Shown here in pieces: positions 306 through 13,475 of a stretch of DNA of 13,475 nt. The translations under genes were made by a program, and so were the position numbers. Positions within the stretch are counted from its first letter, which is position 1, and each line of letters starts with the position of its first letter. This stretch comes from Candidatus Woesearchaeota archaeon (GTDB lineage: Archaea > Nanobdellota > Nanobdellia > Woesearchaeales > UBA10216): positions 1 to 13,475 of the forward strand of contig JACPBX010000012.1 in the NCBI GenBank assembly GCA_016180085.1, given 5' to 3'. The notes below the pieces were generated by a model. It was not told where the DNA came from. It was given only the letters and a program-made list of their open reading frames with translations, and made no database searches.

Positions 306-331
306 TTGCCAAACAAAGCCGTTTTTGATTA

Positions 332-379
332 GTTTTTTGGTTGAACTTTTTTGCGAACCGCAGTGAGCAAAAAAGGTCA
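332..379 (-). repeat. Hairpin/A-tail repeat, copy A (intergenic)
   Basis: The minus strand reads TGA-C-CTTTTTTGC-TCACTGCGGTTC-GCAAAAAAG-T-TCA-ACCAAAAAAC. There is a perfect 9-bp inverted repeat (346-354/367-375) plus a 3-bp outer stem. The architecture matches 8678-8723, 8768-8849 and 13452-13475. Confidence 0.7.
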
Positions 380-13379: not shown

Positions 13380-13475
13380 TGGGCCCACTCGGACTTGAAC
13401 CGAGGACCTCCGCCTGGCTGATTCGCTAACCGAATATCAGACTCGCCCATCTTTTTGGTCAAGCTTTTTGCTTGC
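13380..13475 (-). tRNA. 3' half of an intron-containing tRNA (3' exon 13415-13380; intron of at least 60 nt runs off the window); anticodon not visible, GAN (Ile-GAT or Val-GAC) inferred
   Basis: The minus strand reads A38-GGCGG-AGGTC-CTCGG-TTCAAGT-CCGAG-TGGGCCC-A73. C70 excludes Ala. The intron ends ...TCAG-CC, where TCAG would pair with C32-T33-G34-A35 in a bulge-helix-bulge. Confidence 0.85.
13452..13475 (-). repeat. Hairpin/A-tail repeat, copy D (right arm, inside the second tRNA intron; truncated by the window edge)
   Basis: Minus-strand 13471-13452, GCAAAAAGCTTGACCAAAAA, is identical to plus-strand 8702-8721. Confidence 0.8.

Follow-up and report, generated by a model that had tools for sequence, protein, structure and literature searches.

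The tRNA-Ile(GAU) gene that runs across the end of the window (the whole stretch of 13,475 nt that was analysed, which is all of contig C37) contains in its first intron a member of a dispersed hairpin repeat. Our main reading, to which we assign a probability of about 0.7, is that of a BHB intron holding a dispersed repeat that was copied or swapped at the DNA level, is kept by intron splicing, and was exchanged inside an older intron. The genome (G000) originates from groundwater and comprises 998,598 bp in 45 contigs, with a completeness of 83%; the ProRS encoded in the window is 82–87% identical to proteins named Candidatus Woesearchaeota.

The 20-mer GCAAAAAGCTTGACCAAAAA is present in the window in two exact copies, at 8702–8721 (+) and 13452–13471 (−). 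As the initial annotation had described, both lie in the sense orientation relative to their own tRNA, and the second is directly preceded by GCAA (13472–13475, in tRNA sense). When dinucleotide shuffles were searched with up to three mismatches, about 0.01 matches of the 20-mer were obtained per window, and none of the 200 shuffles reached two. A search of the whole genome with up to two mismatches gave seven contig matches against none for the reversed control; C35:27–46 and C37:13452–13471 represent one locus seen on two overlapping contig ends. In the ~1-Mb genome, four loci were exact (tRNA-Arg, tRNA-Ile, tRNA-Val, and tRNA-His) and two were near-exact, with one or two mismatches (a tRNA-Leu-like 5′ half and the T-loop of tRNA-Met(CAU)), and all six are housed in tRNA genes. 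Judged by the shuffles and the reversed control, this genome-wide count, which had been proposed as a check, shows that the 20-mer is too rare for intron matches by chance. The tRNA-Leu(CAG)-like 5′ half (C36:48655–48815) is interrupted by two or more intervening sequences. An acceptor 3′ strand to match it was not found in the 850 nt downstream, and it may represent a split gene or a pseudogene.

The second copy is located upstream (in tRNA sense) of a T-arm and an acceptor 3′ strand ending at position 13380. Rfam gave a weak tRNA match at 13380–13448, and no tRNA was called in the window by ARAGORN in default mode. The last 50 nt of C37 are identical to the first 50 nt of C35 on the same strand, with 26 of the 50 nt specific to tRNA-Ile; none of the other contig ends compared with the end of C37 fitted it. 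Since the sister genomes G005 and G007 hold the exact 139-nt tRNA-Ile pre-tRNA in one unbroken piece, the join between C37 and C35 is real. Reading the contig past the edge of the window had been expected to reveal a left arm and a tRNA 5′ half, and both were found: a 32-nt exon (GGGCCCA...GCCGC) directly follows the left arm on C35, and the same pre-tRNA was obtained from G005 and G007. The left arm reads AAAAAG-G-TTG-T on the plus strand, but the additional loop and GCAAGC arm that had been predicted with it do not exist, because the final six bases of the window (GCTTGC) are already the hairpin loop itself.

In tRNA sense, the joined sequence is GGGCCCAUAGUUCAGCUUGGCUAGAACGCCGC / ACAACCUUUUUGCAAGCAAAAAGCUUGACCAAAAAGAUGGGCGAG / UCUGAUA / UUCGGUUAGCGAAUCAGCC / AGGCGG...GGGCCCA. 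The gene has two introns, namely a repeat-bearing one of 45 nt at position 30/31 and a canonical one of 19 nt at 37/38, and their removal in silico gave a canonical 75-nt tRNA-Ile(gat) that was called by ARAGORN. The initial annotation had counted at least 36 further intron nucleotides after the 20-mer; 10 nt of intron 1 and 19 nt of intron 2 were indeed found there, but the 7 nt between them are the exon UCUGAUA with the anticodon GAU. This micro-exon stretch runs straight on from exon 1 in G003, which is without intron 1. The coordinates of the described features are collected in Table 1.

Table 1. Features of the two tRNA genes and of the repeat copies in the window and on the adjoining contig C35.
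Feature	Position	Strand	Basis or remark
Type-C-like intergenic copy UGACC U6 ... A6 GUUCA ACCAAAAAA	333..379	−	Between two plus-strand ORFs
tRNA-Arg(UCG)	8638..8765	+	Rfam tRNA, 47.2 bits; anticodon loop CUUCGGA
tRNA-Arg intron, 54 nt at 37/38	8677–8730	+	Element at ~8678–8722 with exact 20-mer
Type-A member UGACCUUUUU ... AAAGGUCA AUCAAAAAAC	8769..8849	+	Starts 3 nt past the tRNA-Arg 3′ end
tRNA-Ile(GAU) exon 3, positions 38–73, 36 nt (AGGCGG...GGGCCCA)	13380..13415	−	ARAGORN on spliced sequence
tRNA-Ile intron 2, 19 nt (UUCGGUUAGCGAAUCAGCC), position 37/38, without repeat	13416..13434	−	Found by ARAGORN once intron 1 is removed
Micro-exon UCUGAUA, 7 nt, positions 31–37, anticodon GAU	13435..13441	−	Splicing and BHB analysis
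3′ end of intron 1 (GAUGGGCGAG)	13442..13451	−	BHB scan; GGCG pairs with exon CGCC (25–28), AG in the 3′ bulge
20-mer of the type-C hairpin repeat: loop end (GC), right arm AAAAAGCUUG, A-rich tail ACCAAAAA	13452..13471	−	
Hairpin loop GCAA; end of window and contig	13472..13475	−	50-nt overlap of C37 and C35
Left arm ACAACCUUUUU (11 nt) and exon 1 (32 nt)	C35:51–93		Identical unbroken sequence in G005 and G007

We give almost no credence to an assembly artefact, that is, to a wrongly joined contig end or a chimeric collapse of repeats with no real 20-mer-bearing tRNA-Ile intron behind it. The contig does break inside the repeat, and the groundwater unitig graph branches at 13448 and 13470, with depth rising from ~6–22 to more than 1000 across the tRNA; the metagenome unitigs provided no bridge over the end of C37, only branch points and variant alleles. 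Nevertheless, the same 139 nt are unbroken in two other genomes, the overlap includes 26 unique nucleotides, and the spliced product is a perfect tRNA. The gene was probably split by the assembler because the dispersed repeat fills most of intron 1. A second tRNA 3′ end lies 14 nt upstream of tRNA-Ile (C35:94–140, −), and this tandem was also observed in G007 and G008. The region upstream of tRNA-Ile in G005, G001, G002, and G003 is occupied by a promoter-like TTTATAAA/TTTAAAG stretch, not by a tandem tRNA. The selenocysteine identity given to tRNA-Arg by ARAGORN (-i) was rejected as a miscall, the anticodon loop CUUCGGA giving Arg(UCG).

The BHB scan of intron 1 revealed a central helix H (CGCC/GGCG) with no mismatches and 3-nt bulges (GC|A and AG|U). 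The flanking helices are short when counted as contiguous pairs (2 bp for h′ and 0–3 bp for h), and a longer irregular rod is formed via pairing of the left arm with the tail. The minimum-energy fold of the whole tRNA-Ile precursor (z −4.0) contains the CGCC/GGCG helix; the same fold includes two pairings within the repeat, one between CUUUUUG of the left arm and CAAAAAG of the tail and the other between CAAGC of the loop and GCUUG of the right arm. This rod makes the motif of intron 1 a relaxed BHB. According to the predicted fold, intron 1 is an archaeal BHB tRNA intron with a relaxed motif, and we infer that it is spliced. In intron 2, the 4-bp central helix CUGA/UCAG is perfect, with 3-nt bulges on either side. 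The BHB in the intron of tRNA-Arg is likewise relaxed: H contains one mismatch, and the outer helix measures 7 bp. The hairpin in this intron has a folding energy of −16.3 kcal/mol (z −2.7).

The genome encodes a single EndA catalytic domain (PF01974, C40:45896–46156, 97 bits, in a 205-aa frame) and an RtcB ligase (476 bits). RtcB is located in a 1001-aa open frame (C15:48015–50810, −) in which the Pfam match is split into 1–58 and 49–426, and this split suggests an intein-like insert. In DPANN archaea, alpha4 EndAs with an L3 loop have been reported to go together with heavily disrupted tRNA genes (PMC5829648).

The repeat is ~35 nt long and consists, in its type-C form, of a 10-bp hairpin CAACC-U5 / A5-GCUUG, a variable loop, and the A-rich tail ACCAAAAA. 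A structural pattern search of the genome yielded 38 complete copies, which fall into the subfamilies type A (...AAAAAGGUNN AUCAAAAA), type B (...AAAAGGUUC AAUCCAAAA), and type C (...AAAAAGCUNN ACCAAAAA, with a C.C mismatch). In all 38 copies, the two outermost pairs of the stem are Watson-Crick pairs, with four and two pair types, respectively, indicating that the stem covaries. The Rfam search of the window matched only tRNA and no family for the repeat, and neither C/C′ (RUGAUGA) and D/D′ (CUGA) boxes nor a K-turn were found in the element sequence.

Twelve of the 38 copies are inside mapped tRNA intervals; of the others, seven are no more than 60 nt away from a tRNA end, and 19 are at other places. 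Since mapped tRNA intervals make up 0.36% of the genome, the repeat is ~90-fold enriched in tRNA genes, and seven of the eight type-C copies are held by tRNA introns. The occupied tRNA positions, each with a BHB, are 30/31 (Ile), 37/38 (Arg, His, and Glu), and 59/60 (Val and Met). The introns of tRNA-Ile, tRNA-Arg, and tRNA-Val share ungapped identical blocks of 11 and 20 nt and differ in their remaining parts; in tRNA-His, the 20-nt block is kept and the 11-nt block deviates by 1 nt (ACAATC). The tRNA-His intron at 37/38 is 69 nt long and contains the exact 20-mer, and the spliced product was identified as His by ARAGORN. Two tRNA-His(GUG) genes are located 1.4 kb apart (C41:25650–25791 and 27067–27137), one of them intron-less; the gene with the 69-nt repeat-bearing intron has a C.U mismatch at pair 27–43.

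The free copies often lie just upstream of a start codon, at a distance of a few bases, or immediately beyond a tRNA 3′ end, and some are antisense. Among the type-C-like copies, that at 333–379 alone lies outside tRNA genes; it is also present in G007. The corresponding site of G005 (window 314–372) was considered as a clean empty site and rejected, because the 17 unrelated nucleotides found there represent a replacement. The type-A member beyond tRNA-Arg is interrupted by ~53 nt of two GC-rich hairpins (8780–8831), so that repeats are nested within repeats. Three further ideas were pursued. The scan of asymmetric U-run interruptions, which asked whether the tail is a direct or mirror copy of an arm, yielded no informative case. 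A role of GGUUGAUC similar to that of an SD sequence before start codons was dropped, as most subfamilies are without the complementarity, and pairing of CUUGACC with a D-loop GGUCAAG was dropped because tRNA-Ile and tRNA-Arg are without that D-loop.

The repeat is not limited to this genome. The 18-nt core motif AAAAAGCTTGACCAAAAA, searched with up to two mismatches, gave 3–25 matches in each of the ten congeners. Within the order, the 18–20-mer motif (up to two mismatches) was detected in 32 of 201 genomes belonging to many families, against one match for the reversed control, and the copies are mostly at the 5′ edge of introns in the T-loop, D-loop, or anticodon loop. In other families of the order (L015, L021, L025, and L033), antisense repeats beside tRNA genes are accompanied by 17–22-nt direct duplications of the tRNA 3′ end, which resemble integration footprints or very long target duplications. 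Also in other families (L022, L036, L042, L020, and L043), the tRNA-intron repeat is followed by a second conserved module, approximately UUCGCUUCGCUCA or CGAGCGACAUUCGCUCG.

A member of the repeat family is present in the tRNA-Arg intron of all ten congeners. The subfamily differs even between sister genomes, namely between G000 (type C) and G005 (type A), between G007 (type C) and G004 (type B with nested inserts), and between G003 (type C) and G002 (type A). The stems of the Arg introns are compensatory: CAACC/GCUUG, CCAUC/GCUGG, GAACC/GCUUC, and CAAAC/GUUUG were found. In the tRNA-Arg introns of L098 (G001) and L103 (G009), a matched change (UUCUU / AAGAA / tail AAGAA) was observed; the U-run, the A-run, and the A-tail all carry it, and hence the tail covaries with the stem.

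The Ile 30/31 site was read in nine of the ten congeners; in G004, the gene was not recovered. An identical type-C intron is found in G000, G005, and G007, and G009 has type C with a different, compensated stem (UGACC/GCUCA). G008 and G001 carry type A together with a second GGUUG arm, which forms a 4–5-bp h′ beside GGCG. In G006, the intron is plain, 31 nt long, with its own 5-bp h′ and no repeat; G002 has the G006 backbone with a type-B repeat in the loop, and G003 has no intron at this position. The unitigs from the source groundwater contained one more type-B allele, which continues into the same GGGCGAG|UCUGAUA. All eight intron alleles in the genus, as well as the metagenome variant, end with GGCGAG at the 3′ side. 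A search for a target-site duplication around the Ile intron (GCCGC|...|UCUGAUA) found none.

The tree of a single protein, ProRS, divided the genus into clade I {(G000,G005),(G008,(G007,G004))} and clade II {(G001,G006),(G003,G002)}. Type A is present at Ile 30/31 in both clades, and the 30/31 intron is therefore older than the genus split. It also predates the type-C copy, because introns ending with GGCGAG and holding other subfamilies or no repeat occur in both clades. The intron-less state of G003 is best read as a precise loss rather than as a pre-insertion state, and under this interpretation no clean insertion event is documented for the 30/31 intron. As the origin of the type-C core in G000, we favour replacement within an intron already in place over fresh insertion. 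The initial annotation had proposed an independent insertion or a transfer of the element between introns. Transfer or replacement is thus the alternative that we favour, and independent insertion seems less likely in view of the GGCGAG-ended 30/31 intron of both clades. The plain (G006) and intron-less (G003) alleles show that, as far as gene sequences can tell, the repeat is dispensable at the Ile site; from the repeat-less alleles, the different subfamilies, and the constant GGCGAG end, it appears that the repeat was swapped in an older intron.

At both the Ile and the Arg site, the distribution of the subfamilies disagrees with the ProRS tree, itself a single-gene tree, and this does not fit vertical descent. 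It is quite improbable that no transfer took place, with the Arg and Ile introns each inheriting an old element vertically and purifying selection alone maintaining the 20-nt identity. Introns bearing the element are present at both sites across the genus, and change is slow, intron 2 of tRNA-Ile differing by only 1 nt between G000 and G008. However, close relatives differ in subfamily at both sites. The changes are clustered (the loop, two arm/tail bases, and a 14-nt indel), with identical flanking intron and exon bases, and the exact 20-mer of four different G000 tRNAs is absent from the sister-genome orthologues.

According to the main reading, the repeat would be selfish or neutral DNA. 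Copying or swapping between sites would take place at the DNA level, either by transposition, with an enzyme that was not found, or by gene conversion between copies. No match to Y1/HUH (PF01797), TnpB (PF07282), or reverse transcriptase was obtained in the 83%-complete genome, and one tyrosine recombinase is present. Inside tRNA genes, the repeat may persist only in BHB introns because EndA and RtcB would remove it together with the intron. The left arm, which directly follows the 5′ bulge, could provide a strand for h′, the inner helix. At the Ile site, the BHB-forming ends would have stayed fixed, and the interior would have been exchanged among subfamilies. The identity of the 20-mer among tRNA-Ile, tRNA-Arg, tRNA-Val, and tRNA-His would then reflect recent copying or homogenization in one subfamily, and not chance or tRNA ancestry. 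A more far-reaching proposal, which we put forward only tentatively and with considerable doubt, is that the repeat is a non-autonomous mobile element from which new spliceable BHB introns arise in the tRNA genes of DPANN archaea, with the inner helix provided by its left arm and its movement catalysed by an enzyme not yet recognized as a transposase.

The conservation across the order, the covariation of the stem, and the occupancy of all ten Arg introns count against mobility in that they would also fit a selected RNA function. The main rival to a mobile or exchangeable repeat is accordingly an RNA module kept by function, which may serve as a platform for protein binding or stand in for the inner helix of the BHB, guiding EndA, RNase Z, or RNase P to their cut sites. 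We regard such a module as unlikely. In addition to the compensatory stem changes, the three-way change in G001 and G009, and the retention of the motif in many families, its structural setting would suit it: the hairpin foot lies directly against the 5′ splice site or the tRNA ends, the left arm pairs with a second arm beside H′ to form h′ in G008, G001, and G009, and the G000 allele has a rod, stacked on H, that is built from the left arm and the tail. On the other hand, tRNA-Ile manages without the repeat in G006 and G003, and intron 2 of the same gene is also without it. Half of the copies are far from any tRNA, some of them antisense or just before start codons; the subfamily switches between sister genomes, and no Rfam family was matched.

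The arrival and spread of archaeal tRNA introns is an open question, and a 2026 census of Asgard tRNA introns found no general arrival route (bioRxiv 10.64898/2026.10.13.758758). In the present case, the shared intron content is a defined and countable hairpin repeat. One orthologous site within one genus displays five states (no intron, a plain intron, and an intron with any of three subfamilies), and this series separates the needs of splicing, met by the fixed ends, from an exchangeable cargo. The natural Ile alleles are ready substrates for probing how relaxed the DPANN endonuclease is. If the repeat does create introns, it would give a specific way in which archaeal tRNA introns could arrive, a step for which an explanation is still lacking. 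In practical terms, such repeats break assemblies inside tRNA genes and hide the tRNAs from standard finders, as with ARAGORN in its default mode. The completed tRNA-Ile gene with its micro-exon, the allelic series of the 30/31 site in nine genomes, and the conclusion of a swap in an older intron are new; the literature searched contained nothing on hairpin repeats in tRNA introns of Woesearchaeota or DPANN.

The archaeal tRNA-Trp intron carries a box C/D guide RNA, and the repeat resembles it as a structured, conserved RNA housed in a BHB intron. Unlike the box C/D intron, it is without C/D boxes, a K-turn, or an Rfam match and is dispensable at the Ile site. The short hairpins, tens of copies, subfamilies with covarying stems, and non-coding nature are shared with REP/REPIN sequences, which are moved by RAYT, and with palindromic miniature elements derived from IS200/IS605. 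The many dispersed copies and the presence/absence differences at Ile 30/31 and at window positions 333–379 are likewise MITE- or REP-like traits. In contrast to REP/REPIN, the repeat is without doublets, no Y1/HUH or TnpB gene was found for it, and no conserved 5′ tetranucleotide was identified; it also differs from REP in its strong bias to tRNA genes and introns. In the model for Caldiarchaeum subterraneum, an integrating element of 1.8 kb that encodes a recombinase disrupts a tRNA gene (PMC3293823). Common to both cases is a mobile element tied to intron gain and to duplicated tRNA fragments, here the 17–22-nt duplicates in other families of the order, whereas our repeat is ~35 nt long and non-coding.

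The repeat-bearing introns are a variant of the known transposed BHB introns, groups of which were described in the tRNA genes of Thermoproteales (Fujishima et al., 2010, Mol Biol Evol 27:2233, as presented in PMC4090602). In the account given there, “intron transposition” was inferred without a vehicle (PMC4090602). As in the Thermoproteales groups, near-identical intron sequence is shared by different tRNAs and by differing positions (30/31, 37/38, and 59/60 in our case), each site needs a BHB, and gain or exchange at the DNA level is proposed with a mechanism that is not known; the likeness is based on the shared 11-nt and 20-nt blocks and not on the 70% whole-intron threshold used for those groups. 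Unlike there, the shared part is a discrete repeat of hairpin plus tail, with free copies between genes and next to tRNA ends as well. The repeat is divided into covarying subfamilies, and its host is a DPANN archaeon (Woesearchaeota) with a single short EndA. Moreover, the repeat at the Ile site was, in contrast to the Thermoproteales introns, apparently swapped in an older intron and did not arrive together with the intron.
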